Positions 16,260 through 55,116 are shown, counted from the first letter of the stretch. The stretch is DNA of 64,000 nt from Chitinophaga pinensis (GCA_945877575.1 CAMDUE010000002.1:197861-261860), one strand, 5' to 3'. Notes: generated from the letters alone by a model not told the origin. Translations and numbers: made by a program.

Positions 16260-16386
16260 CCGAGTTTGGCGCCGTTTTACTTCCGAGTTTGGCACTGTTT
16301 TACTTCCGAGTTTGGCGTTTTTTTAAAATACCCCCTACCAACTACCAGGTACCATCTACCAGGTACTAGGTACCAGGTACCAGGTA
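16260..16386. repeat. 23-bp direct repeats (CCGAGTTTGGCRCYGTTTTACTT, about 2.6 copies) followed by a TACCAGGTA / CTACC hexamer array
   Basis: Directly visible in the divergent intergenic region. The array is the reverse-strand version of the GGTAGN family found elsewhere in the window. Confidence 0.8.
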
Positions 16387-25081: not shown

Positions 25082-26116
25082 TTATTCCATTCTCTCCCAA
25101 GTGCTTTTTAGAACTTTTGTTTTGAGGCCGTGTTTTTCGGCGAGGTAGCGCGCGAAGACGGCAGAGTAGCCGTGGGTGACGGAAATGGTGTGGGCTTCGG
25201 TGGCGAGGCAGGCGGTTTCGAGTTCTTGGAAGTCGGCGTGGTCGCTGAGAACGAATCCGCGGTCAAAGTTTCCCCAACGGCGGGAACCGCGAAGGGCCAT
25301 CCAGCCGGAGCAGGAAATTGTTAGGTGACGAGGGTCTTGTGGCGAGGGACTGGTGTCTATATTTTGGGTGTTAGGGGTCGGGTGTCGGGATTCGGAGGGG
25401 GTCGGGTTACGGGAGTCGGTGGGGTTGCTGGAGATGAGGATGTGCTTGGAGGTGGGGCGTTGGTTTTTGGTGGTAGGGTAAATGGGGGGAAGGAAGATAT
25501 TGAAGCCGTCACGGTTGAGGGCTTGGGTTGTGTCGGCGATGGTTTTGGTGACGTAGAGGGGGAGGTCTTGGAGGTGATGGATGAGACGCTGGGCTTTTCC
25601 GAGGGAGTAGGCTGAGATGATGAGGTTTTCATCGTTGTTGTGGAAGTATTCGCGGATGTCGTTGAAGATATCGGCTTGGGGTGTCCATCGAAAAACGGGG
25701 AGTCCGAAGGTGCTTTCGGTGATAAAGTGGTGGCATTTCACGGGTTCGAATGGGGTGGAGATGCCGTCATTGTTGAGTTTATAGTCCCCCGAAACGACCC
25801 AAATTTCGCCTTGATGTTCTAGTCGGATTTGCGCGGAACCGGGTATGTGTCCGGCGGGATGAAAGGAAATGTTGACGCCGTTGATGCTGATGGTTTGGCT
25901 GAAGGGAAGGGTTTGGAGGGAGATGTGTTGACCGAGACGGAGTTTCAGGATGTGTTCGTTGCCCTGGGCGGCGAGGTAGTGTTTGTGGTTGGGTCGGGCG
26001 TGATCAGCGTGGGCGTGGGTGATGAGGGCTTTGTTGACGGGCTTGTGGGGATCTATGTAGACATCGGCGGCGGGGCAGTAGAGGCCGGATGGGGTGGAGG
26101 TTAGTAGTTGGTACAT
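25082..26116 (-). CDS. Ligase-associated DNA damage response exonuclease (MBL-fold)
   Basis: GLYCPAADVYIDPHKPVNKALITHAHADHA N-terminus and HxHxDH metallo-beta-lactamase motif. An ATP-dependent DNA ligase gene lies nearby. Contains an in-frame low-complexity insert. Confidence 0.7.
   Translation of the reverse strand: MYQLLTSTPSGLYCPAADVYIDPHKPVNKALITHAHADHARPNHKHYLAAQGNEHILKLRLGQHISLQTLPFSQTISINGVNISFHPAGHIPGSAQIRLEHQGEIWVVSGDYKLNNDGISTPFEPVKCHHFITESTFGLPVFRWTPQADIFNDIREYFHNNDENLIISAYSLGKAQRLIHHLQDLPLYVTKTIADTTQALNRDGFNIFLPPIYPTTKNQRPTSKHILISSNPTDSRNPTPSESRHPTPNTQNIDTSPSPQDPRHLTISCSGWMALRGSRRWGNFDRGFVLSDHADFQELETACLATEAHTISVTHGYSAVFARYLAEKHGLKTKVLKSTWERME
25325..25480. repeat. G-rich heptamer array (GGGTGTC/GGGATTC/GGGTTAC ...) embedded in-frame in the exonuclease CDS
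   Basis: Seen directly. Encodes TDSRNPTPSESRHPTPNTQ... on the minus strand. Confidence 0.7.
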
Positions 26117-26160
26117 GGTAGATGGTACATGGTAGATGGTAGATGGTACATGGTAGGGGG
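26101..26160. repeat. GGTACATGGTAGATGG hexamer array at the exonuclease start
   Basis: ggtacatggtagatggtacatggtagatggtagatggtacatggtagggggtagggg. Confidence 0.8.
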
Positions 26161-26171
26161 TAGGGGATATT

Positions 26172-28413: not shown

Positions 28414-28560
<147 letters not shown>

Positions 28561-29402: not shown

Positions 29403-30905
29403 CAGTTCTTCAAGGGTGGCGATGTCTTTGACGGATTTATCGCGGCGCCAGCGCACGATGCGAGGGAAACGAACGGCGATGCCGCTTTTATGTCGGGTGC
29501 TACGATTGATTCCTTCGAAGGCGAGTTCGAAGACGAGTTCGGCGTCTACACTTTTTACAGGGCCGAAACTTTCACGGGTGTGGAGTTTGATCCATTTATT
29601 GACTTCTAGAATTTCAGCGTCAGTGAGTCCGGAATAGGCTTTAGCAAACGGTACGAGTTCCTCGCCTTTGTAAATGGCGAAGGTAAAATCGGTATATAGG
29701 TTGGCGCGACGACCGTGTCCGCGTTGGGCGTAGATGAGAACGGCATCAACAGTGTCTGCGTCGACTTTCCATTTCCACCAATCGCCGCGTTTACGTCCAA
29801 TTCCATAGGCTGAATCTTTGCGTTTGATCATGAGTCCTTCGCTTCTTATTTGGGAGGATTCATTTCTGATTTTCTGGAGTTCTTCAAAGTCTTTGGGATG
29901 AAAAACGGGACTGGGCTGTATGTGAGTGTTTGGTGATGGGAATAGATTGTCTAGTTGTTGTCGACGATTGAAAAGGGGTTCCTGGCGAAGGTCTTGACCG
30001 TTAATTTCGAGGAGGTCATAGGCTAAAAACACGACAGGGTAGTCTGTGAGAGTTTTTTTTCCGGGGGACTTTCTTCCGAGTCTTTTTTGCAGGTCTTGAA
30101 ACGGTCTTGGGAGTTGAAGTTCAAAGTCCCAACAAAGGATTTCCCCATCGAGGGCGCCCGAAAAAGCATCCCAAGAAAGCATGGAGGAAGCAAGTTCAGG
30201 AAATTGGTGGGTGATGATGTCTTCGCCGCGTGACCAGAGGTTTATGGAGTTGTTGCGTTTGATGATTTGCGCGCGGATGCCATCCCATTTAGGCTCTATT
30301 TGATAATTTGTAAGTGGATGAATATCTGTTGATTGAGGATCTTCATTGAAGGGAGACGCAAGGAAAAAAGGGTATGGTTTGGTAGAATTTAGATGGGGTT
30401 TTGGTGAGATGATGAGGTCTTGGTAGTTGGAGTTTTGCACGGTCCAATTTCCCATCAATCGGAGGTTGAGCTCGTCTTTTTCGATGCCTGTGTGAGCGTG
30501 AAGGGCTTGAACGAGAAGTCCTTGAGAGACGCCAAGTCGGAAGCCGCCGGTGAGGAGTTTGATTGATGGTAGTTGGTAGGGGGTAGAGGGTAGGGGGTAG
30601 AGGGACTGTGAGTTTTGGAGGATGAGGTGGATGGTTTCGGCGAGGTCACCTACTACGGAGTAGGATTCTTCGAAGAGCCAATCGGGGATTTGGGCGGTTT
30701 GGATGGCCCATTGTTTGAGTTCGGATAGTTTGATTTGTCGTTTGGGTCGGCGGCCGGTGAAGATTGCGATGACCATGAGTTTGTCAGGGTCTGGGGCTTG
30801 GTTGAAATAATGGGTTAGGGCTTGCACCTTACGGGAGTTTTTGGTGGTGGAGTCGAGTTCGTAGAAAAGTTTGGAAAAGAGATCAGGAACTTCGAAGATG
30901 TGCAT
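29385..30905 (-). CDS. ATP-dependent DNA ligase (ligase-associated DNA damage response type)
   Basis: N-terminal FSKLFYELDSTTKNSRKVQALTHYF. Motif I EPKWDGIRAQI (the adenylated Lys). 506 aa. Contains an in-frame GGTAGN array. Confidence 0.8.
   Translation of the reverse strand: MHIFEVPDLFSKLFYELDSTTKNSRKVQALTHYFNQAPDPDKLMVIAIFTGRRPKRQIKLSELKQWAIQTAQIPDWLFEESYSVVGDLAETIHLILQNSQSLYPLPSTPYQLPSIKLLTGGFRLGVSQGLLVQALHAHTGIEKDELNLRLMGNWTVQNSNYQDLIISPKPHLNSTKPYPFFLASPFNEDPQSTDIHPLTNYQIEPKWDGIRAQIIKRNNSINLWSRGEDIITHQFPELASSMLSWDAFSGALDGEILCWDFELQLPRPFQDLQKRLGRKSPGKKTLTDYPVVFLAYDLLEINGQDLRQEPLFNRRQQLDNLFPSPNTHIQPSPVFHPKDFEELQKIRNESSQIRSEGLMIKRKDSAYGIGRKRGDWWKWKVDADTVDAVLIYAQRGHGRRANLYTDFTFAIYKGEELVPFAKAYSGLTDAEILEVNKWIKLHTRESFGPVKSVDAELVFELAFEGINRSTRHKSGIAVRFPRIVRWRRDKSVKDIATLEELLSRIT
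30568..30605. repeat. (GGTAGN)6 array in-frame inside the ligase CDS
   Basis: ggtagttggtagggggtagagggtagggggtagaggg. Encodes PLPSTPYQLPS on the minus strand. Confidence 0.8.
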
Positions 30906-30906
30906 G

Positions 30907-30921
30907 TTGCGAATTTCGCAA
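30907..30921. promoter_or_regulatory. Perfect palindrome TTGCGAATTTCGCAA (TTGCG-W5-CGCAA), candidate operator
   Basis: Lies 1 bp upstream of the ligase ATG and 65 bp upstream of the wecB ATG. The same half-sites occur at 38981 and 39022. Confidence 0.4.
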
Positions 30922-30986
30922 ATTTTGGCGGGGAGTTTTGTGAAAAATGCAAGAACTTAGAAAATTGAATGACTTAACTTTGCACC

Positions 30987-32081
30987 ATGAAAATCACGTT
31001 GGTTGCGGGGGCGAGACCCAACTTTATGAAGATAGCTCCAATCCTTAGGGCAATTGAGGGGGCGGCGATTCGTGGGGAAGATATTCAATATCGATTGGTG
31101 CATACTGGACAGCACTACGACAAGGCAATGTCGGGTAGCTTCTTTGAGCAATTGGGAATTCCTGAGCCAAACGTGAATTTGGAATGTGGAGGTGGAAGTC
31201 ATGCAGAGCAGACTGCGGCTATTATGGTTGCGTTTGAGAAAGAGTTGATGGCACACCCTTGCGATTGGGTGGTGGTGGTTGGAGATGTTACTTCTACAAT
31301 GGCCTGTTCAATTTCAGCTAAGAAGTTACATATTAAGGTTGCGCACGTAGAGGGAGGAATCAGAAGCGGTGATATTACCATGCCCGAAGAGATCAATCGT
31401 TTGGTGACAGACAGCATCACGGATGTGTTTTTTACCACATCGGAGGTGGCTAACAGTAATTTGAGAAAAGCTGGGGTATCGGAGGAGAGCATTGTTTTTG
31501 TGGGTAATACCATGATTGACACGTTGTTGAGGCATGAAAATGATTTTGTAGCACCTGCATTTTGGGAGGCTGAGTCTTTGAAGAAGGGTGACTATTTGGT
31601 GATGACCTTGCATAGGCCATCGAATGTGGATGATGCTGATCAGTTGAGGTCTATTTTCGAGGTGATTGATGATGAATTGAAAGATCATAAAGTGGTTTTT
31701 CCAGTACATCCGAGAACCCGAAAAAACATGGAAAGTTTTGGAATTAAGCCTATGAATGTGGTGATGGCTGAGCCTTTGGGGTATTTTGAATTCAATTATT
31801 TGGTGAAAAATGCCAAAGGGGTGATTACCGATTCAGGGGGAATTACAGAAGAGACCACTGTGATGGGTGTTCCGTGTATCACTATGAGGAATAGCACCGA
31901 AAGACCGGAGACGGTTGATATTGGTACCAATGAGTTGATAGGAACCGACCCTGAAAATTTGAGAAAAGCATTGAAACAACTGCTTTCGGGCCAATGGAAA
32001 AAAGGAAATATTCCTCCAATGTGGGACGGTAAAACTGCTGAGCGAATCGTGGAGTGGTTTTCTCTAAATTTGCAAAAATGA
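30987..32081 (+). CDS. wecB: UDP-N-acetylglucosamine 2-epimerase (non-hydrolysing)
   Basis: MKITLVAGARPNFMKIAPI...HTGQHYD. 364 aa. Confidence 0.9.
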   Translation: MKITLVAGARPNFMKIAPILRAIEGAAIRGEDIQYRLVHTGQHYDKAMSGSFFEQLGIPEPNVNLECGGGSHAEQTAAIMVAFEKELMAHPCDWVVVVGDVTSTMACSISAKKLHIKVAHVEGGIRSGDITMPEEINRLVTDSITDVFFTTSEVANSNLRKAGVSEESIVFVGNTMIDTLLRHENDFVAPAFWEAESLKKGDYLVMTLHRPSNVDDADQLRSIFEVIDDELKDHKVVFPVHPRTRKNMESFGIKPMNVVMAEPLGYFEFNYLVKNAKGVITDSGGITEETTVMGVPCITMRNSTERPETVDIGTNELIGTDPENLRKALKQLLSGQWKKGNIPPMWDGKTAERIVEWFSLNLQK

Positions 32082-37933: not shown

Positions 37934-37970
37934 ATGCTCGGATTTAGAAAAGTCCGAGCATTTGTTTTTT
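37934..37970. terminator. Intrinsic terminator hairpin (9-bp perfect stem ATGCTCGGA/TCCGAGCAT, T-run)
   Basis: Seen directly, immediately after the TetR stop codon. The stop codon of the convergent minus-strand gene lies in the loop. Confidence 0.6.
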
Positions 37971-38960
37971 AGAGCCGTAGTCTTGAATGAGGAATTTGTT
38001 TCTCGCAGATTGTCCGGTTTTGCTGATAAGAGTGCCATTTTCTTTGCAGGTTTCGAGCCAATTTTCGGTAGAATACACCCAGTGGGGCGCTTCACTGAAT
38101 ACCACGCCACTCATTTGCGAACAGATTACAGCAATTTTATCTTTTAGGGTATGAAAAATGATGGAATTATCGGTGGTAATCATGGGCGTAAAAAATAATT
38201 TGTAACGCGCTCCCATATATTCTTCAACATAAGGATTGAGTTTTCGACCGAGTTCAGCCTGTCTATACACCAAGTTGATGAGTTGATCGTATTCCTTAAG
38301 AACATTGAGGAAGGTGCGGTCATCGGCGAACATTCCAGATTCTTTGTAGTGATAAATTTGATAAAGGGTTGAATATAGGGTTTCATATCCCCAGATTTCA
38401 TGCGAAGCAATTTTGAGGTATTTTTCGGCGAGTTTCATCCACTTGAATTCATTGGGCTTTGCTTGAAATTTCGTTTTATTCAATTCAGGTTGTTTGAGAA
38501 ATTCCCGGTTCCAAATGAAGTTTTTGAACTGGGCCAGCGCCGGAAACCACATATAGTAGAACATAGGCACCTCTTTGGCACCATACATTATATGTGAGTG
38601 ATTTTGGTGGATGCAATGATCGAGACGCGATTCAAGTTCCGTATAAAAATCGTCTGAGGTATAAGTTTCAAAATTGAGGGTTTTTAATTGTCCGCTTAGC
38701 CAATTATTATCAGCGTGTGAGAATTTATTGAGGTCAATATTGAACTCTTTGGCGAGTAAAATCATTTCATCGGCTCTAAGTGACTGCGGATTTCTGAGTC
38801 GGCGGTATGCCGCATCCTCCGAAATACATAGCAAATCAGCCATGATGGTTGCCGTTCTAAATCCCAATTTGCGGGTTTTTTCAGTAAATTCTTGAGTAAA
38901 AGTATGTGCCATAAGCTTTATAAAAGTGTTTGACCCATTAGACACCAATTTTTTGGACAT
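37944..38960 (-). CDS. HTH domain-containing protein of unknown family (putative regulator)
   Basis: N-terminal HTH-like KLGFRTATIMADLLCISEDAAYRRL. 338 aa. Divergent from the giant T9SS gene. Confidence 0.45.
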   Translation of the reverse strand: MSKKLVSNGSNTFIKLMAHTFTQEFTEKTRKLGFRTATIMADLLCISEDAAYRRLRNPQSLRADEMILLAKEFNIDLNKFSHADNNWLSGQLKTLNFETYTSDDFYTELESRLDHCIHQNHSHIMYGAKEVPMFYYMWFPALAQFKNFIWNREFLKQPELNKTKFQAKPNEFKWMKLAEKYLKIASHEIWGYETLYSTLYQIYHYKESGMFADDRTFLNVLKEYDQLINLVYRQAELGRKLNPYVEEYMGARYKLFFTPMITTDNSIIFHTLKDKIAVICSQMSGVVFSEAPHWVYSTENWLETCKENGTLISKTGQSARNKFLIQDYGSKKQMLGLF

Positions 38961-38978
38961 CCCCTAAAAAAAATTTCG

Positions 38979-39037
38979 ATTTGCGAAAAATGCAAATTCT
39001 TTTTTCCGGGGGACGTTGAATTTGCGAAAAACGCAAG
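38979..39037. promoter_or_regulatory. Two near-palindromic TTGCG-AAAAA-YGCAA sites 41 bp apart (candidate operators)
   Basis: ATTTGCGAAAAATGCAAAT at 38979-38997. TTTGCGAAAAACGCAAG at 39021-39037. Both sit in the divergent intergenic region. Confidence 0.45.
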
Positions 39038-39089
39038 AGATGTAAAATCAATGCGTTGCAACTTTGCATCGAACCTTTATTCAAATCTT

Positions 39090-42000
39090 ATGAAAAACTC
39101 GTACACTTTAAAAATCGAGGGCGTGAAGCCCGGAACCAAACGCCTCAAAGGCATGGCAATGGCATTATTATTAGGAATGGGAATCCCATTGAAGGCCCAA
39201 ACCTTTTTAGATGATTATCTGCAAAAGTTTAAGAAAGTTCAACCATCGCATGGATATTTATTGGAAAGTTTGGCTCCGCGATTCGATGCCGATGGCTATG
39301 CCTCAGATCCTCAATCGAAGGAAGCTGATTATTTGGTTGGATCGGAAGCGGTGAGAATGGCATTGATACAGAAGTATGGACTTGCCGAATATGATTACAG
39401 AGACAGCCTTCGAAGGGTATTGGAAGCAAAATATCTCTCTGAAGATGTGGTTCCCATCACCATTGTTGATATGATGTTTCAGAAAATCAATCCCATTTTA
39501 TCAAATGCAGGTCGATTAGAATATGATGATGATAGCAATTATGTGTTTAATTTAACTGGATTCACTGGTAATAAATACAAGGAACAATACATGTTGGTAG
39601 GGCATATTCCGGTGGAACAGCTTCGATGGGATCAAACCAAGTTTGTATTAGATAGCAATTTAATTCTGAGTAATTTTTCTGGCCAACCTTCAAAGCTGGG
39701 TTGGACTATGGTTGTCAATGGAAAGGAATTTCCGATACAGTTGAATGTACCCATGGAATTTCCTAAAGATTTGACAGGTTATAAATTTGAAATTAAAGCT
39801 GAAGTTGATTCTGGGAATGTGCGTTTGAAGGGAATAGGAATACCGCTGTGGAAATCACCAATGGTAGTGAAATTATGGGCGAAAATGGCACGTAAGGTAA
39901 ATCCATATCACAGCGATTTACCAAAAGTAGATGATCAAAATATCAGCATACATTTCTTTGAATTAGATGGAGTGAAAGCGCCTTGGAGAAAGGCCATGTA
40001 CACCATACACAAAGGTTTAGACGAATATGGTAAGCCAAGAATTTGCATGGCCAAGCCCCTAATATTGGTTGAAGGCATTGATTACGGTTACAAGGATTAT
40101 CCGAAGGGATTGAGAGACAATAAATACGGAGAGAATGGTTATGTAGACCTTCTGAAGGGAAAGACTTGGAATGTTCCAGCCCAATTGTGGGAAGACTGGG
40201 AGTCCATCAAAGATGCACCGCAAGTAATAGATCGATTGAGGAAAGAGGGATTTGATGTGGTTTACGTTGATTTTTACGACGGTGCGGAAGACATGAATTA
40301 CAATGCGGAGGTGTTGATTGGAGTGATGCAAGAGTTGCAGCGCTTATCGTGTGGAAATGAAATGCATGTAGTGGGTGTCAGCATGGGGGGAACAGTTGCG
40401 AAGCGGGCTTTGCGCTTAATGGAGCTTCGCAACATTCCTTCATGTGTTACCAGTTTTACTTCGTTTGATGCGCCTTACCAGGGTGCCAATTTACCACTCG
40501 GACTACAGCACGGGGTGCGTTATTTAAGAAATTCAGTAGGAGAATGCAATGATCTATTTCACCGAGTATTGAGACGTCCGGCAACATTGCAATTATTGGC
40601 TAATCATGAAAGTTCCAATTACAGAGGAGCTGAATACCGTAAACTTTGGATTAGGGAGGATTCGTTGTATGGGGGTTATCCCAAAAAACCTTGGTTATTT
40701 GCCATCACCAATGGCGGTAGCGGAGGAAAAGAAAGTCGTCAGAAATATGATAACACCACCTTTTTGGAACCCGGCATGACCATGTCGAGATTGAGTTTCA
40801 ACTTCATGGTTGCCTTGGGAATGGTGAATAACTACATCTACGATATATACGCAGAGAACTTTTACGATCGCAACAAAAAGGAATATTATTCAGGAAGAAT
40901 TCATTTTTTGTCAACCTTTAAATCGCACAAAGACAATCATTTATACGATCATGTTCAAGGTTCTTATGTAAAGAAACTGGGTTTCATGAAGAGTTTGACA
41001 AAGATTCCATTTTTTAAAGTTCCCTTTTTAACTGAGCAAATGTGTTTTGTTCCAACCATCAGTGCTTTGGATATTACCAAGGGCAATGCAGATGTTTCAG
41101 AGTTGAGTTTTGGTTTAAAAGACAGTGTTTTTGGACAAATATTGACTCAAGATTTGAAAACACCTTTCCATCAGGTTTACATACCCAAATCAAATCAGCC
41201 CCACGTTAAATTGGACAATTCCAAGGGAGGCAATATTGAGTGGTTGATAGGAAAATTGAAGTCAATTTCTCCATCGGAGATGCCCGTAGTTTTGAAGTAT
41301 GATTACAATGTAAGAAAAACTCACGAGCGTGCTTTTGCCAATGTAACAGTGAGGGGAGAGGCTTCTTTTGAGATAAACGGTGTGGGCAATAATCCTAAAA
41401 TTAGTACATCCGAAGAGAAGCAAAACAGAACCTTTGAAGTTAGAGATTTTTATGTTGGACAATGCGGTGGGTCTTGGTGGCAGGCGTTTGACAGTTCTAC
41501 TTTAGGATTGGGGCAACATATACAAGCGACAGTCTTAAGGGTTGGTTCTGGAAGCAGGGTAGACTTAAACGACCGAAGCAAATTTTTAGTGTCGGCAGGA
41601 AATAACAAATTAATTTTAGAAAAAGGCAGTCACTTGCAAATTGATGAAAATGCATCTTTGGTTATTGAAAATGGATCACAAGTAATTATTGAAGAGGGTG
41701 CTGAATTGATTTTTAAGAAAAAGGGTCAATTGATTTTAGATGGTCCGAATGCCATGTTGCATATTAAAGGTGATTTAATCTTAGACTCTGGAGTGGTTTT
41801 CGAACCCAAAAAGAGATGGAAGCAAGAGGTTGGATTGGTAAAATTCTCAGCACATGGATACGGTTATGGAAATGCACAGATATTGTCTAGAGATGAAGAA
41901 GTAGAATTGATCTTCAACGGAAACGGCAAGAAGGGTTCAAAGAATTTGCAAATCGAGGGAACGGTTGATTTCAGTGGCAAGGCTGGTGGTAAGGAGGTGA

Positions 42001-43244
42001 GGAGTTTGACAATTGATCGTTCTCAGGTTTGCTTTGCGCCGAGTTCTAAGTTATTCACCACCAGCTCATTGATTTTGATGGAATCGAAGTTTGACAAGGT
42101 TGAATGGGCGAGTAAGACTGCGGGAATCATTCAACACAAAGGGTCCTATTTTTATGCTAAGAATGTTGATTTCATTCATATGGATACTGCATTGATATAC
42201 GAATCAAAGTCAAACTTAGATGTTGCAAATTGTGAATTTGAGGAGAATTGGGTGGGTTTGTATTTGAATTATTACAATCCCAACGTAAGAAACTGCAAAT
42301 TCGAGAAGAATCACAACGCCTTGATCGTGAATATGATCATCAAAGATTTTAGCGTTCAAGAATGTGAATTCAAGAAGAATCAGACGGGATTGAAGATGAT
42401 GAATGATCGTGTTTGGATGGGTCGTGGTTATATTGAAAGCAGTTTGTTTCAGGAAAACTGGATTGGAGTTGATGCGCTGAAGGTAGACCTTACGTTAAAG
42501 TGCAACAGATTTGATTCAGATGCTTATTCTATTGTTCATTCGGGCGGTTATTTGAGAATGGATCATGACTCAAAATGGCAGAACGACGGGTTATTGAAGT
42601 CGGTCATTGGCGGATACAATGTTTTTGTGAATCCAAAGTATACTGGCATCAAATTGGATAACACTGAGCTATTCGCTGATGGTATGAATTATTTCTTCTA
42701 CAATAAGAAAAAGTACACCGGAACTGCATTTATTGAAGGAAGGGCATACGTTGATGAGAATGCAGATTATTACAACAATCAGAATGGTGAAGTTTCATTG
42801 GGAAGAAACATATGGAAGCCTATTTCTGATGAATTTGTAGCTGATAGTTTGAATCTTCAATTTGTGAGATTACACAGAAATGCCGATGGAAGTGGTGTTG
42901 TGAAAGTAACGGGAAAATTGGAGAAGACTTATCCTTCAGAAGCATGTTACAGTGCAAAAAAGCCTGAGGATTTGGATGGAATGAAGAGCACCTCGCCGAA
43001 TGGAGGTTCATTTGTTGGGGATGAGATTGAAGCGCCTAAATGGAAGGTAGTAAACGGCTTGGTTGTACTAGAGGTTGAGGAAGAGATGTTGGTGGAAGTG
43101 TACAACAGCAACGGTGTAAGGGTTTACCGTGGAAGAATCACTCCTGATACTTCTGAAATACCCTTAAGTACGGGAATTTACTTTCTGAGCACTCAAGTAG
43201 GTGGGGTTATTTCCACTCAAAAGATTGCAGTGTTAGAGGAGTAA
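39090..43244 (+). CDS. T9SS C-terminal-sorting-domain protein with lipase-like alpha/beta-hydrolase domain and parallel beta-helix repeats
   Basis: Signal peptide MAMALLLGMGIPLKAQ. GxSxG nucleophile elbow HVVGVSMGG. NCEFEEN/NCKFEKN beta-helix repeats. C-terminal Por-secretion tail ...GIYFLSTQVGGVISTQKIAVLEE. Confidence 0.7.
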   Translation: MKNSYTLKIEGVKPGTKRLKGMAMALLLGMGIPLKAQTFLDDYLQKFKKVQPSHGYLLESLAPRFDADGYASDPQSKEADYLVGSEAVRMALIQKYGLAEYDYRDSLRRVLEAKYLSEDVVPITIVDMMFQKINPILSNAGRLEYDDDSNYVFNLTGFTGNKYKEQYMLVGHIPVEQLRWDQTKFVLDSNLILSNFSGQPSKLGWTMVVNGKEFPIQLNVPMEFPKDLTGYKFEIKAEVDSGNVRLKGIGIPLWKSPMVVKLWAKMARKVNPYHSDLPKVDDQNISIHFFELDGVKAPWRKAMYTIHKGLDEYGKPRICMAKPLILVEGIDYGYKDYPKGLRDNKYGENGYVDLLKGKTWNVPAQLWEDWESIKDAPQVIDRLRKEGFDVVYVDFYDGAEDMNYNAEVLIGVMQELQRLSCGNEMHVVGVSMGGTVAKRALRLMELRNIPSCVTSFTSFDAPYQGANLPLGLQHGVRYLRNSVGECNDLFHRVLRRPATLQLLANHESSNYRGAEYRKLWIREDSLYGGYPKKPWLFAITNGGSGGKESRQKYDNTTFLEPGMTMSRLSFNFMVALGMVNNYIYDIYAENFYDRNKKEYYSGRIHFLSTFKSHKDNHLYDHVQGSYVKKLGFMKSLTKIPFFKVPFLTEQMCFVPTISALDITKGNADVSELSFGLKDSVFGQILTQDLKTPFHQVYIPKSNQPHVKLDNSKGGNIEWLIGKLKSISPSEMPVVLKYDYNVRKTHERAFANVTVRGEASFEINGVGNNPKISTSEEKQNRTFEVRDFYVGQCGGSWWQAFDSSTLGLGQHIQATVLRVGSGSRVDLNDRSKFLVSAGNNKLILEKGSHLQIDENASLVIENGSQVIIEEGAELIFKKKGQLILDGPNAMLHIKGDLILDSGVVFEPKKRWKQEVGLVKFSAHGYGYGNAQILSRDEEVELIFNGNGKKGSKNLQIEGTVDFSGKAGGKEVRSLTIDRSQVCFAPSSKLFTTSSLILMESKFDKVEWASKTAGIIQHKGSYFYAKNVDFIHMDTALIYESKSNLDVANCEFEENWVGLYLNYYNPNVRNCKFEKNHNALIVNMIIKDFSVQECEFKKNQTGLKMMNDRVWMGRGYIESSLFQENWIGVDALKVDLTLKCNRFDSDAYSIVHSGGYLRMDHDSKWQNDGLLKSVIGGYNVFVNPKYTGIKLDNTELFADGMNYFFYNKKKYTGTAFIEGRAYVDENADYYNNQNGEVSLGRNIWKPISDEFVADSLNLQFVRLHRNADGSGVVKVTGKLEKTYPSEACYSAKKPEDLDGMKSTSPNGGSFVGDEIEAPKWKVVNGLVVLEVEEEMLVEVYNSNGVRVYRGRITPDTSEIPLSTGIYFLSTQVGGVISTQKIAVLEE

Positions 43245-49341: not shown

Positions 49342-52300
49342 TTAAAATGCTGCTTCAACGCCAATTAGGAACCGGAAATCTACGAAGTTTTCTTGTGGAT
49401 TCACGGTATTTAGGAAAAATGGAAAATCAATTCTATATCGCATGGTTCTTGGAGAGTAAGAGTAGTTGCGATTGATGATTTTATTGTAATTATTGATGTT
49501 GATCCACGTTCCTATTCCGGCATCTGCGAGCAGGTTGCTGTTGTACCAATTATTTGATTTTTGGATTGCGATCAAACCTGCATCAGCGAATAAATAGGGT
49601 GAAAAAGAAATGAATTTATTTTTCAAAAAGGGCGAAAGTAACTTTCCGAAGTGCCATTCTGTGTTGATAGATATACCAGAAGTACCTCTAAAAAATGCCA
49701 TGATGCTGTCGTTTGATTTGATTCCAATGGCTCTTCCATGAAATCCTCTGAGGTTCAGTCCGCCACCTAAATGGGTGTAATTCGGTTGGATGTTTCCGAG
49801 ATTTCGAACCATCATATTTTGGAATTGAGTTTCAGGGTTGGCGCTTGATGTGTAAAGGGCTGATTCAGGTGATGGATTCGCACCTTGAGCTAATTGAGCG
49901 AATACTCTAGACTTGAAAGTGGTTGATTTAATAGGTTGTTGGTGTTTCCATTCTAGGTTAAACCAACCAAATTGTGTTTGGCTCCAAGGCGATATTAATC
50001 GGGTATCAACGGCAATGGTTCCTGACCTTGACCAACCTGAGTATTGGATGTTCCAAAACAGGTGGAAGTTGGTATTGGTTCTGTCAGACCAAGTACTTGC
50101 AGTGGGTAGATAACCATTGAAAAGGGAATTCTTGTTTATGATGGTTTCGGTGTTTGAACTAAGTGCCCTTAGGTCTTTTCCATAAAGTCCGAAGGTATGT
50201 TTCCCCAATTTCCATTTCCAACCTAGTATTGAGCTCAGACGTTGGTTTGAGGAGATGATTTCTGCAAAATATGTCCCTCCACCGCGTATGTCATGTTGCC
50301 AATTTACTAAACCATTGATGGTCTGGTGAGCGAATTTTATATAATTTAATGGGTAAATCTGATTATTAAGGGCATAATATATTCTGGCATCAAAAACATG
50401 TTTTCGGCTGGCATATTGTCCGGTAAATTTTGCACCAATCATGGTTCCAGAATACTGATTGTATGCAATTGCGGGTCTAATTAGTACTTCGTATGGTTCT
50501 AAAATATTGCTATTTGGACCTTGTCCTTGATCGAGTTTAAAGGAAATTTTCTTTTTCCAACGGTTATTCCTTCGGTCAATGTCGGCCAAAAGGTAGGTGG
50601 CGTCCAAGAAAATTTCTGTGAGTTCATGTTTGGGTTCAATGCTCACATTGATGGTAAAATCGCGGTTCAAACGTCCCCAAGAATTCCAAACCTTGGTTGA
50701 AAGCCTGTTAGGAATGATGTATTGATTTGTTGGGATGGTTAATTGGGTAAATATTAATTTTCCACTTTCGGTTCGTGTCAAAAGGTCTAAGTTCACGGGC
50801 ATGGTGAGATTTCCGTAGCGATGAACGGTGATTTTATATTGACCATTCTCGAGCTTTTTTACTTTTTTAATGCCGTAGTCAATGACTTCTTTCGATTCAA
50901 ACCATTGATCAAAGAACTTATTCAGATCAATTTGTGCTGATTGAATGACTGAATTTCGAAAATCTTCTATGTACGGATGCTTGAATTTCCATTGTTCCAC
51001 ATAGTTTTTCATGGCTATCGAGAAAATGGAATCCCCCAAGAAATAGCGCAAATTGTAGAGCATGGTAGCCGTTTTGTAGTATACATTTCCGTATCCGCCG
51101 CCATGTCCAACGGCCTCATGAAATTCATTACTATGGGTATTGAGACGTTCGTCTTCGCCATCAATGGCATCATCCAAATAGGGGCCAATGGCCCTGGAAT
51201 ATTCGGGAAATGGCTCTACTTTCAGCTCTTTCAGAGCTTCGGCCGTTAAAAATTGAGTGAATCCTTCGTCGAGAGCTGCCCGATAGGTTTCGTTGCTGCC
51301 CACCATTCCCATGAACCAATTGTGGGCCACTTCGTGTGCGATGAGTGCTCTGTGCGAGGGATAGGAACCGCCGCAGAGCGTGAGCATGGGGTATTCCATA
51401 CCATCAGCAGCGTCTGCCACCACAATTTTAGGGTATGCATACATCCCATAATTTCGGCTGTAAAAGGCAATGACTTCACTTAAATATTGCGCGGTTTTTG
51501 TCCAATTTTTGGCATTATGGGCTTGTGCGATTGCCACGCATTGAATTCCGTTCCATGTGACTTCGCTTATTCTGTAGGTTGGATCAGCTGTCCAAGCAAA
51601 ATCGTGAACGTTTTGAGCAAGGAAATGCCAAGTTTTGGTAGTTGGTAGGGGGTAGTTGGTAGTTGGTAGTTGGTAGGGGGTAGTTGGTAGGGGGGTGTTG
51701 GGTTTCGGGTTTTGGGTTTCGGGGGACGGGGAGCGGGAGTTGGGTTGGTTGATGTCAATGGCTTTTTTGAGATCATCGGGAAGTGCTTCTTCGCGGTTTA
51801 AGAGTAATCCGGTGGCTTCAACGATGTACTTTTCTGGGAGATTTAGTTTCACATCAAAGGTGCCAAAGTCGCCGTAAAATTCTTTTTCAAGGTGTTGGCT
51901 GGTTTCCCAAGTGAACTTTTGGTCATAGACGCAAATTCTTGGGTACCAATGAACACCGTTGAAATGTTTAACTCCATGATGATCAAACACTTTCATTCTC
52001 CGGCGAATGGATCCTCGATCAAAATAAGTCTTGAACCAAATTTCAAACACGCAAGAATCTCCTGATTGCAGAGGCTCAGGAAGATCAATTTTCATGATGG
52101 TATAATCAATCTGAGGATCTAAAATGACTTTTTTATAGGGTTTGGTTGATTTATTTCCTTCAATTTGAATCCATGTGATTTGTGTCCCCAAACCTTGTTT
52201 TTCGTAGTTGCCGTAGGTGGGTTTAATTTTATTTAGTTCGTAGAGTTTATCTGTTAAAGAACCTGGCTGAGTGGAGTTTTGATATAAATGAAAAAAAGCT

Positions 52301-52548
52301 TCATTCAGGGTATTGGGTGAGTTGTTGGTGTAAGTCAATCGAAGTTTACCCGTAATAACTTCCGAACTATCATCAAGACTTGCATCTATTTGATAGTGAA
52401 CTTTTTGTTGCCAGTAAGTGGTAGGTGGTAGATGGTAGGGGGTAGGGGGTACTTGGTAAATGGTAGGGGGTAGTTGGCCGTTGGTAGAGAGGAGTTTTGT
52501 GGGGAAGAGTGACCAGAAAAAGATGAGCAAAATCAAGCGCATTCTCAA
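49342..52548 (-). CDS. M1 family zinc metallopeptidase (secreted), with PT/Y-rich low-complexity linkers
   Basis: Signal peptide. HEVAHNWF...E (HEXXH-X18-E). 1068 aa. Two in-frame hexamer-repeat inserts. Confidence 0.8.
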   Translation of the reverse strand: MRMRLILLIFFWSLFPTKLLSTNGQLPPTIYQVPPTPYHLPPTTYWQQKVHYQIDASLDDSSEVITGKLRLTYTNNSPNTLNEAFFHLYQNSTQPGSLTDKLYELNKIKPTYGNYEKQGLGTQITWIQIEGNKSTKPYKKVILDPQIDYTIMKIDLPEPLQSGDSCVFEIWFKTYFDRGSIRRRMKVFDHHGVKHFNGVHWYPRICVYDQKFTWETSQHLEKEFYGDFGTFDVKLNLPEKYIVEATGLLLNREEALPDDLKKAIDINQPNSRSPSPETQNPKPNTPLPTTPYQLPTTNYPLPTTKTWHFLAQNVHDFAWTADPTYRISEVTWNGIQCVAIAQAHNAKNWTKTAQYLSEVIAFYSRNYGMYAYPKIVVADAADGMEYPMLTLCGGSYPSHRALIAHEVAHNWFMGMVGSNETYRAALDEGFTQFLTAEALKELKVEPFPEYSRAIGPYLDDAIDGEDERLNTHSNEFHEAVGHGGGYGNVYYKTATMLYNLRYFLGDSIFSIAMKNYVEQWKFKHPYIEDFRNSVIQSAQIDLNKFFDQWFESKEVIDYGIKKVKKLENGQYKITVHRYGNLTMPVNLDLLTRTESGKLIFTQLTIPTNQYIIPNRLSTKVWNSWGRLNRDFTINVSIEPKHELTEIFLDATYLLADIDRRNNRWKKKISFKLDQGQGPNSNILEPYEVLIRPAIAYNQYSGTMIGAKFTGQYASRKHVFDARIYYALNNQIYPLNYIKFAHQTINGLVNWQHDIRGGGTYFAEIISSNQRLSSILGWKWKLGKHTFGLYGKDLRALSSNTETIINKNSLFNGYLPTASTWSDRTNTNFHLFWNIQYSGWSRSGTIAVDTRLISPWSQTQFGWFNLEWKHQQPIKSTTFKSRVFAQLAQGANPSPESALYTSSANPETQFQNMMVRNLGNIQPNYTHLGGGLNLRGFHGRAIGIKSNDSIMAFFRGTSGISINTEWHFGKLLSPFLKNKFISFSPYLFADAGLIAIQKSNNWYNSNLLADAGIGTWININNYNKIINRNYSYSPRTMRYRIDFPFFLNTVNPQENFVDFRFLIGVEAAF
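51637..51750. repeat. (GGTAGN)n + (GGGTTTC)n composite array in-frame in the M1 peptidase CDS
   Basis: ggtagttggtagggggtagttgg...gggtttcgggttttgggtttcgggggacgggg. Encodes NPKPNTPLPTTPYQLPTTNYPLPTT. Confidence 0.8.
52419..52492. repeat. (GGTAGN)n array in-frame right after the M1 peptidase signal peptide
   Basis: gtggtaggtggtagatggtagggggtagggggtacttggtaaatggtagggggtagttgg. Encodes QLPPTIYQVPPTPYHLPPTTY. Confidence 0.8.
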
Positions 52549-54304: not shown

Positions 54305-54480
54305 TCCAAGGTAGTTGGTAGCAGGTAGTTGGTAGCAGGTAGTTGGTAGTTGGTAGCAGGTAGTTGGTAGTTGGTAGCTGGGCTCTGGCCCAAAACCCGG
54401 TACCCAAAACCCGAAACCCGATACCCGATACCCGATACCCGATACCTGAAACCTGATACCCGATACCCGGTACCCGATAC
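54305..54480. repeat. About 175-bp simple-repeat block: (GGTAGYWG)n then (CCCGATA/CCCGAAA)n
   Basis: Seen directly between convergent coaD and NUDIX genes. The minus strand is a (GGGTATC)n G4 motif. Confidence 0.85.
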
Positions 54481-55116
54481 CTAGTACCCAGTACCAACTA
54501 AATGCTTCTTGATGATATCGTGGATGCTGTGGTAGGACTGGAACTCAGAAGAGTTGAACCAGTCAAGTGGGGCGAAATTTGCTTCGGTGATGCCTTCTTC
54601 TTCTTGCGGTTTTAATGCGGCGGTGCCGCTGCTGTTCATTCTGTACCAGTGGGTTTCCTTTAGGAGAATGGCGTTGTCTTCGTAGTAGGCGTGGTAGGTT
54701 TCTCCGATTTTTTCGGAAATGTTGAGGTGATTGATGCCGGTTTCTTCCATCACTTCGCGAAGGGCGGCGGCAATTTGATCTTCGTGGCGTTCTATTTTGC
54801 CCTTGGGAAGATCCCAAACACCGTTGCGTTTGATGGTTAGTAATTCGTGGTTTTTGTTGAATACTAATCCTCCAGCGGCTTGAATAACGGTGTATTCTTC
54901 AATGAATTCTCTCAGTGTTTCTTGAGGTTCAGGGGTCATCAATCCGAAGGTCATGGGTTTGCCCAAGGCCTCGCTTGATATTAAGATGTTAAAACTTTTA
55001 TGGATTTCATCATCACCTATGAAATAAAAGTTTGGAATGCCTTTGAGAGCATCCAGAGAATCTGTGATGATCAACGCACCCTCATTGAAGTAGATTTTGT
55101 AAGTTTGCGGCTCCAT
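54481..55116 (-). CDS. NUDIX hydrolase
   Basis: Nudix box GKIERHEDQIAAALREVMEETGI. Confidence 0.8.
   Translation of the reverse strand: MEPQTYKIYFNEGALIITDSLDALKGIPNFYFIGDDEIHKSFNILISSEALGKPMTFGLMTPEPQETLREFIEEYTVIQAAGGLVFNKNHELLTIKRNGVWDLPKGKIERHEDQIAAALREVMEETGINHLNISEKIGETYHAYYEDNAILLKETHWYRMNSSGTAALKPQEEEGITEANFAPLDWFNSSEFQSYHSIHDIIKKHLVGTGY

Follow-up and report, generated by a model that had tools for sequence, protein, structure and literature searches.

A conserved pair of candidate operators at the divergent promoter of a giant secreted-protein gene in Bacteroidota

Results

Architecture of the divergent locus

The window analysed here, a 64,000-nt stretch of DNA from a genome labelled Chitinophaga pinensis, carries a gene for a predicted regulator and a divergently oriented gene for a giant secreted protein, and the spacer between them contains two palindromes, termed O1 and O2. 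The features are as follows.

37944 to 38912, minus strand: regulator gene, 322 aa, start revised from 38960 on the basis of orthologs
38980 to 38996, no strand: candidate operator O1 (site 1), TTTGCGAAAAATGCAAA, a 17-bp pseudo-palindrome with a PWM score of 20.8
39021 to 39037, no strand: candidate operator O2 (site 2), TTTGCGAAAAACGCAAG, core 39022-39036, PWM score 20.1
39055 to 39062, no strand: GTTGCAAC palindrome, not a separate element
39059 to 39066, plus strand: predicted giant-gene -7 box CAACTTTG, sigma-A type (phylum consensus TAnnTTTG; nAAyTTTG in orthologs)
39090 to 43244, plus strand: giant gene, the putative target, encoding a 1384-aa secreted protein, start revised from 39051

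The boundaries given by an ORF finder for the longest reading frames, 37944-38960 (minus) and 39051-43244 (plus), place both starts too far into the spacer. Sixteen regulator orthologs, 321-325 aa in length, all open with MI(E/D)TFT, the counterpart of MAHTFT at ATG 38912 in the window, and the giant-gene orthologs start at the ATG equivalent to 39090 (MKNSY...). The true spacer is therefore 38913-39089, 177 bp, and the ortholog-based length of the regulator is 322 aa, which makes the 90-bp spacer and the 338-aa protein of the first-pass annotation artefacts of wrong starts. A Pfam search of the window located a TetR gene downstream of the regulator gene.

The sequences and coordinates previously assigned to the two palindromes proved correct when the window was re-read. 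O1 can be read directly as a longer repeat, ATTTGCGAAAAATGCAAAT at 38979-38997, the core of which (TTGCG-N5-TGCAA, 38981-38995) carries one G.T mismatch, and the 15-bp core of O2 (39022-39036), of the TTGCG-N5-YGCAA type, is a perfect palindrome. The two sites also form a 17-nt direct repeat, identical at 16 of 17 positions with starts 41 bp apart, and the centre-to-centre spacing of 41 bp noted earlier is borne out both in the window and in every ortholog. By contrast, GTTGCAAC, which had been described as overlapping the start of the downstream gene, does not do so: with that start moved to 39090, the palindrome lies upstream of it. As a palindrome, its columns are conserved in none of the orthologs aligned; the sole conserved part is the CAAC that opens the -7 box, and its right half is the box CAACTTTG itself.

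Within the window, the bare core TTGCG-N5-CGCAA with at most one mismatch occurs four times against 1.55 expected, a count that 8 of 100 shuffles equal and that is not significant on its own. The 17-mer with at most three mismatches has six matches against 1.63 expected, and none of 100 shuffles reaches six; two of its extra matches constitute a second pair at 30907-30952. The decisive evidence for O1 and O2 is comparative and does not come from motif counts in the window.

Domain organization of the predicted regulator

The window regulator had no match in Pfam and NCBIfam even at E up to 10, and its profile matched no PDB sequence. A profile search recovered 1,701 clusters (at 50% identity) at E up to 1e-3, mostly from Bacteroidota where the source is named, revealing a sizeable family without a name or a characterised member. 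Relatives at E ~1e-50 to the regulator profile score above threshold for BetR (27-28 bits, cutoff 21.6) and HTH_3 (24.9 bits, cutoff 23), with matches spanning ~residues 25-85. The earlier description of the protein as a helix-turn-helix (HTH) protein is thus upheld through its relatives and through weak matches of a structure model to XRE domains, though not by any direct domain match; the assignment of its N-terminal domain to the XRE/BetR-type HTH is one of transitive homology. The predicted HTH occupies ~residues 17-60 with ISEDAAYRRLR as its recognition helix, and the form IS(E/Q)D(A/S)AYRR(I/L)R is nearly invariant across the family.

The weak XRE matches come from a first structure model of low confidence (pLDDT 66), the N-terminal 60 residues of which locally resemble P22 c2, SinR, HipB and DdrO (probability 0.44-0.85, TM(target) 0.54-0.60, E above 1). 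AlphaFold with 118 sequences gave a high-confidence model (pLDDT 94.8, pTM 0.84) with helices at residues 2-15, 20-28, 32-40 and 47-56 followed by an alpha/beta domain. A Foldseek search of PDB with this model returned nothing below E = 0.09, and the best PDB matches of both models were PPK1 and the PLD-family nuclease Nuc at E ~0.1-0.8; the PLD-like hint was not relied on, as no HKD motif was seen on reading the sequence. The ~250-aa C-terminal domain matched no known family in Pfam or NCBIfam and no solved fold in PDB. Its conserved polar residues are K130, W134, Y165, E172, Q185, K224, N249, S297 and R304, and the domain is presumably signal-sensing. Pfam found no S24 domain in the regulator or its relatives.

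Promoter of the giant gene

The translated giant protein contains a GVSMGG serine-hydrolase motif and a right-handed beta-helix (Pfam Beta_helix 2.4e-08). Its match to the T9SS C-terminal sorting domain TIGR04183 scores 22.2 bits, below the cutoff of 23, and the orthologs show weak or faint Por_Secre_tail matches. In Flavobacterium psychrophilum, a TAnnTTTG box occupies positions -12 to -5 of mapped starts and the median leader is 24 nt (PMC9723704). By this rule, the position of the -7 box predicts a giant-gene transcription start near 39071, with a 19-nt leader. The box starts 30 nt downstream of the O2 centre, so that, relative to the predicted transcription start, O2 would be centred at about -41/-42, spanning -49 to -34, and O1 at about -82/-83.

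Promoters of the Bacteroidota type occur throughout the window, and the density of TAnnTTTG there is 3.5-fold higher in non-coding DNA. A -33 TTTG is not clear at the giant-gene promoter; nor is it clear at other promoters of the window, so its absence is not diagnostic of activation. The TTTG within the half-sites was considered as a source of divergent -33 elements and rejected, because it lies 34 nt from the -7 box where 19-21 nt are needed.

A separate observation concerns the leaders of other genes. Of the 31 gene starts in the window with 45 nt or more of non-coding DNA in the 60 nt before them, nine are preceded by an nAnnTTTG that ends 3-5 nt before the ATG: 28643(+), 30987(+), 37270(+), 43394(+), 48688(-), 52542(-), 56503(+), 62232(+) and 63939(-). 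These boxes bear out the promoter type in the source genome and fit the -12 to -5 position seen in F. psychrophilum (PMC9723704). Gaps of this length predict leaderless mRNAs, at a rate well above the 5.5% found in F. psychrophilum (PMC9723704).

Conservation of site sequence and geometry

For comparison, 11 metagenomic loci and 79 loci from species-representative genomes were gathered. The orthologous set comprises ~45 loci, with regulators 49-99% identical, and 29 non-redundant regions were aligned ungapped on site 1. The source MAGs of the orthologous loci are mostly labelled Bacteroidota, Bacteroidia or Flavobacteriales. Labels such as 'uncultured Rhizobium sp.' and 'uncultured Bifidobacterium sp.' occur among L012, L013, L014, L017, L018, L028 and L034, and other records are labelled 'Chitinophaga pinensis'; on these clearly Bacteroidota-type loci the taxonomic labels look unreliable.

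Three information-rich blocks stand out in the 29 regions, namely O1, O2 and the -7 box, and the spacers between them have near-zero information. The ortholog consensus of O1 is TTGCGAAAAAYGCAAA, the A-rich centre of which is also conserved in all orthologous loci. O2 takes the form T[T/G]GCG-N5-CGC[C/A]A, usually TTGGCGATAAACGCCAAGG, with the consensus TTGGCG-ATAAA-CGCCAA(GG); its two halves are comparably conserved, and T41 and G43 are invariant. In the -7 box, A96, T99-T101 and G102 are at least 90% conserved (alignment A2). Counted from the first position of the O1 core, 44 of the 45 regions have the -7 box beginning 78 nt on and a single region has it at 79 nt, and the gap between the O2 core and the box is 22 nt. 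The half-sites are thus conserved between diverging flanks across the 29 non-redundant regions and hold a fixed position relative to the core promoter in 44 of 45 regions. Wherever an ortholog locus extends far enough upstream, the divergent neighbour is a homolog of the giant gene (25-95% identity). These comparisons confirm O1 and O2 as deeply conserved candidate protein-binding sites at a fixed distance from the giant-gene promoter.

One alternative is that another sigma factor reads the right half of O2 (CGCCAAGG) as a -35-like element, the symmetry of the dyad being incidental. CGCCAAGG does stand at a constant 19-20 nt from the downstream box, and promoter classes other than sigma-A exist in F. 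psychrophilum (PMC9723704). However, the downstream box is the standard sigma-A nAnnTTTG, the left half of O2 is conserved as well as the right, and O1 repeats the dyad 41 bp upstream with no promoter box at that spacing. The window, moreover, has CGCAAGAG in place of CGCCAAGG and still keeps the dyad. We regard this reading as highly unlikely.

A further alternative would have the palindromes work as hairpins in a transcript, whether as an attenuator, as a terminator or within a small RNA. On both strands the folding of the 88-nt region surpasses that of shuffles (z = -2.6 and -3.5), and an outer CCCC...GGGG pairing flanks O1 in the window and in some orthologs. Yet any pair of palindromes would fold moderately better than shuffles, and the outer stem is missing in many orthologs. 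For the two 6-bp stems, 285, 311 and 271 of 500 shuffles reach the observed percentage of paired cells, number of compensatory pairs and covariation score, respectively; covariation is thus no higher than in shuffles, and the dyad symmetry stems from the conserved half-site sequence. Depending on the lineage, the mismatches are G.T or C.A, with pairing kept on neither strand. In addition, the sites lie upstream of the predicted transcription start, in a divergent spacer where there is nothing to terminate, and an Rfam search of 38000-40000 at E up to 1 gave no match, so that the region displays neither a covariance-model match nor compensatory changes. RNA hairpins are therefore an exceedingly improbable account, and the comparative evidence identifies O1 and O2 as probable protein-binding operators and not RNA stems.

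A second module between the ligase and wecB genes

The additional pair of 17-mer matches belongs to a second module at 30906-30982, 8 kb away, between the genes for an ATP-dependent DNA ligase (minus strand) and wecB (plus strand).

30906 to 30922, no strand: site A, GTTGCGAATTTCGCAAA, PWM score 18.9, abutting the ligase start codon (30905, minus strand)
30926 to 30919, minus strand: predicted ligase -7 box AAAATTTG, overlapping site A
30937 to 30953, no strand: site B, TTTGTGAAAAATGCAAG, PWM score 15.6, 31 bp from site A
30975 to 30982, plus strand: predicted wecB -7 box TAACTTTG, four nt before the wecB ATG

The module is kept in the closest relatives (L012, L013, L105 and L147) and is not conserved in more distant orthologs; L013 has a better palindrome, TTTGCAAATTTCGCAAG, at the position of site B. 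The gap between site B and the -7 box is 22 nt, equal to that of O2. The box-position rule (PMC9723704) predicts a wecB transcription start at 30987, the A of the ATG, so the wecB mRNA would be leaderless and site B would lie at about -42 of its promoter. A protein on site A would cover about -7 to +8 of the ligase start, which is predicted near 30914 (minus strand). The two inter-site spacings, 41 bp and 31 bp, are both whole numbers of helical turns. The site-to-box distance was kept and the site-to-site distance shifted by one helical turn, which points to a stereospecific contact with RNA polymerase.

A metagenome scan for further promoters with this lineage-specific module listed at least 120 matches. 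Of the 80 loci examined, those other than repeat finds of the two modules already described were all fortuitous matches within coding DNA, and the matches listed are a poor guide to the size of the regulon.

Association of the motif with the regulator family

Synteny cannot separate the neighbouring regulator from another local factor, because regulator and target are always adjacent in the orthologous loci. The half-site core is invariant in the orthologs, as is the recognition helix IS(E/Q)D(A/S)AYRR. A 17-nt PWM was built from the orthologous sites and applied to loci in which the regulator has other neighbours. Among distant paralogs (22-31% identity, other genera and neighbours), 7 of 35 have a site scoring at least 10, and all seven sites lie 26-55 nt upstream of the paralog's own ATG (background 3.3% of windows; Mann-Whitney p = 0.001). 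Perfect TTTGCAATTTTYGCAAA sites occur in L055 and L059, two Draconibacterium-labelled MAGs. In none of the paralog loci is there a giant gene beside the regulator. The motif thus goes with the regulator family and not with the giant gene, which argues that the neighbour is the binding protein. The TetR neighbour was also considered as the cognate factor and rejected, being present in only 16 of the site-carrying loci.

A competitor to the adjacent protein would be a different, more global transcription factor, with the adjacent gene a bystander or a second regulator. Such a factor would account for the second module, 8 kb off at the unrelated ligase and wecB genes, and for an extra exact site in L024 beside other genes, and the window regulator lacks a direct domain match. 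On the other hand, the motif occurs upstream of distant regulator paralogs in other genera and different gene contexts, and the distance between O1 and the regulator ATG is tight. Across ~560 kb of ortholog loci, PWM scores of at least 18 are confined to O1/O2-type sites, the second module of the window and the one L024 copy. CRP sites have an N6 dyad spacer and FNR sites N4, and the 15/17-bp odd-centred dyad is unlike either. We consider a global factor improbable. As far as sequence analysis reaches, the core of the first-pass proposal, in which the adjacent HTH protein acts on the giant gene by way of the two palindromes, draws support from the sites, their spacing, the synteny and the paralog motif. 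The GTTGCAAC element, the short spacer and the longer protein fall away from that proposal, and the second target region 8 kb off had escaped it.

Two observations on related loci are recorded here. Within L024:10978-11177, the extra copy is identical to L024 site 1, TTTGCATTTTTCGCAAA, and lies 76 nt upstream of a 23S-rRNA-intervening-sequence-protein (23S-IVP) gene; directly behind it comes a 56-57-nt tandem repeat of 2.9 copies, beyond which a peptidase S46 gene lies. In the distant-paralog loci L062, L066, L073, L076 and L077, a same-strand ORF of 336-339 aa stops no more than 4 nt short of the regulator-family gene or runs into its start, and its similar length hints at a possible tandem paralog.

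Upstream region of the regulator gene

On the regulator side of O1, one further region can be tentatively delimited.

38937 to 38968, minus strand: candidate regulator promoter region, two ortholog-conserved blocks that are displaced in the window; tentative

Block 1 is CACCCAAA, on the minus strand TTTGGGTG, with a possible -33 TTTG, and block 2 is T.A.ACAA, on the minus strand TTGTnTnA. The information-content profile places the blocks at -12 to -5 and -35 to -28 from O1 in most orthologs; the minus-strand TTTGGGTG lies 5-12 nt beyond O1 and TTGTnTnA 19 nt further on, and in the lineage of the window both are ~8 nt further from O1. Along the minus strand of the orthologs, no canonical TAnnTTTG box for the regulator gene was found at a fixed distance from O1, for which reason the assignment of the regulator promoter is tentative. 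The start of O1 lies 59-72 nt from the regulator ATG in all orthologs. With no canonical promoter located for the regulator gene, autoregulation via O1 is a plausible possibility.

Several orthologs, including L003 and L023, have an inverted repeat GTGTTT-N8-AAACAC 20-40 nt upstream of the regulator start, of which the window has a weaker version, GTGTTTGACCCATTAGACAC, at 38926-38946. This repeat could be a 5'-UTR hairpin or another operator.

Discussion

Taking these observations together, the best explanation of the locus, and in our judgement a probable one, is that regulator dimers bind O1 and O2, with O2 serving to activate the giant gene and O1 to autoregulate the regulator. The 322-aa protein would bind the palindromes as dimers and act as a one-component regulator, joining an HTH of the XRE/BetR type to a novel C-terminal domain. 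A spacing of 41 bp corresponds to ~four helical turns and would therefore place O1 and O2 on the same face of the DNA, where two dimers may bind cooperatively. From O2, at -41/-42, the bound regulator may activate the giant gene, a putative T9SS-cargo gene, through contact with RNA polymerase, and O1, beside the regulator's own putative promoter, may provide autoregulation. In this lineage, the module would have been recruited twice, with site B predicted to activate the leaderless wecB and site A to repress the ligase gene.

The sign of this regulation is a tentative part of the proposal. A position of about -42 is where lambda CI, bound at OR2, touches RNA polymerase, as do class II activators in general, and by analogy we lean slightly towards activation from O2 over pure repression, a preference that rests on the invariant distance between O2 and the -7 box; a repressor bound at -49 to -34 would also work. 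As a pure repressor, the regulator would occupy O1 and O2 as dimers, perhaps tetramer-bridged, and occlude both -33 regions until released by a ligand. Proteins of the XRE/Cro-CI type with palindromic operators are mostly repressors, O2 would cover -49 to -34, and site A, at about -7 to +8 of the predicted ligase start, is in a classic repressor position. Bacteroidetes LexA-like XRE repressors likewise use dyad-N5-dyad operators (PMC8565304). Repression needs no invariant 22-nt gap, however, yet of the 45 lineages 44 show the gap free of indels, and the second module retains it despite a different inter-site spacing; moreover, O2 leaves the -7 box and the transcription start, the most effective places for blocking, uncovered. 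Repression alone thus seems unlikely, albeit a serious contender, and activation from O2 is the reading followed below.

Several known systems resemble parts of this arrangement. As in lambda CI/OR (PR-PRM), P22 c2 and phage 434, 17-bp odd-centred pseudo-palindromes lie between divergent promoters, one of which would here drive the regulator. The predicted position of several operators on one helical face, allowing cooperative dimer-dimer binding, recalls lambda OR, and the predicted position of O2 recalls OR2, which activates PRM from near -42. The A/T-rich central spacer is conserved though probably not contacted, as in 434 and P22 operators, and the N-terminal fold shows a weak local match to P22 c2 in the low-confidence model. 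In contrast to lambda, the gene here is chromosomal, the sites stand 41 bp apart (31 bp at the second module) rather than ~24 bp, and a novel 250-aa alpha/beta C-terminal domain takes the place of the S24 peptidase/CI dimerisation domain. The predicted target, a putative T9SS cargo, also differs from those of lambda CI/Cro-type systems, and the regulator has no sequence match to a solved structure.

Within the same phylum, the Bacteroidetes LexA-like regulators combine HTH_XRE with S24, recognise the boxes GGA-N5-TCC and CTAA-N5-TTAG, and show divergence of binding motifs among paralogs (PMC8565304). Their XRE HTH acts on dyad-N5-dyad sites in their own and target promoters (PMC8565304), as is predicted for the putative XRE HTH of the present system, but the half-sites here are TTGCG/CGCAA, no S24 domain was detected by Pfam, and the putative targets are non-SOS genes apart from an incidental ATP-dependent ligase. 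An identity of O1 and O2 with SOS boxes was rejected on the same grounds, the motif TTGCG-N5-CGCAA differing from the published boxes (PMC8565304) and S24 being absent.

The predicted geometry is reminiscent of class II promoters (CRP, FNR), in which the proximal dyad is likewise ~41-42 bp upstream of the start, the spacing to the core promoter is rigid and a second site lies integral helical turns further upstream. The promoter here differs in being of the Bacteroidota sigma-A type (-7 TAnnTTTG), the dyad spacer is N5 instead of N6 or N4, the regulator comes from a family with no relation to CRP/FNR, and activation is suggested by analogy. Finally, distant family members exceed the BetR (PF08667) gathering score over the HTH region, whereas the window protein and its orthologs reach no Pfam threshold; the match covers ~50 residues of a 148-position model, and the C-terminal 250 residues are unrelated.

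Our verdict from the sequence comparisons is that O1 and O2 are a genuine but conventional operator pair at a divergent promoter, the motif, C-terminal domain and targets of which all differ from those of the closest analogues. A broader picture can be drawn, in which a family with a novel sensor fold reads TTGCR-N5-YGCAA and acts, in the manner of lambda CI, as a stereospecific -42 activator at Bacteroidota sigma-A promoters, in this clade dedicated to a giant T9SS esterase/beta-helix gene, and in which this lineage has coupled wecB and the ligase gene to the same control; as a whole, we put it forward tentatively, as possible and still doubtful. If it is true, the coupling of wecB would tie the supply of surface-glycan precursors to a giant surface protein. 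Beyond the gut model species, little is charted of how Bacteroidota control transcription, and the switching-on of individual T9SS cargo genes is poorly understood. The locus supplies a testable triplet of regulator, operator and promoter for a family of ~1,700 clusters, together with a defined 17-bp motif, and its rigid geometry could become a first model for contacts between activators and RNA polymerase at Bacteroidota -33/-7 promoters. The conventional type of the element and the uncultured source organism limit the immediate impact.

An unrelated repeat class was noted in passing. Tandem arrays of the heptamers GGTAGnn/TACCAnn recur across the window, several of them just upstream of gene starts, at 16336-16386, 26104-26163, 28461-28558, 30575-30604, 51635-51723, 52414-52477 and 54310-54481, and a 23-nt repeat at 16260-16325 was recorded together with these arrays.
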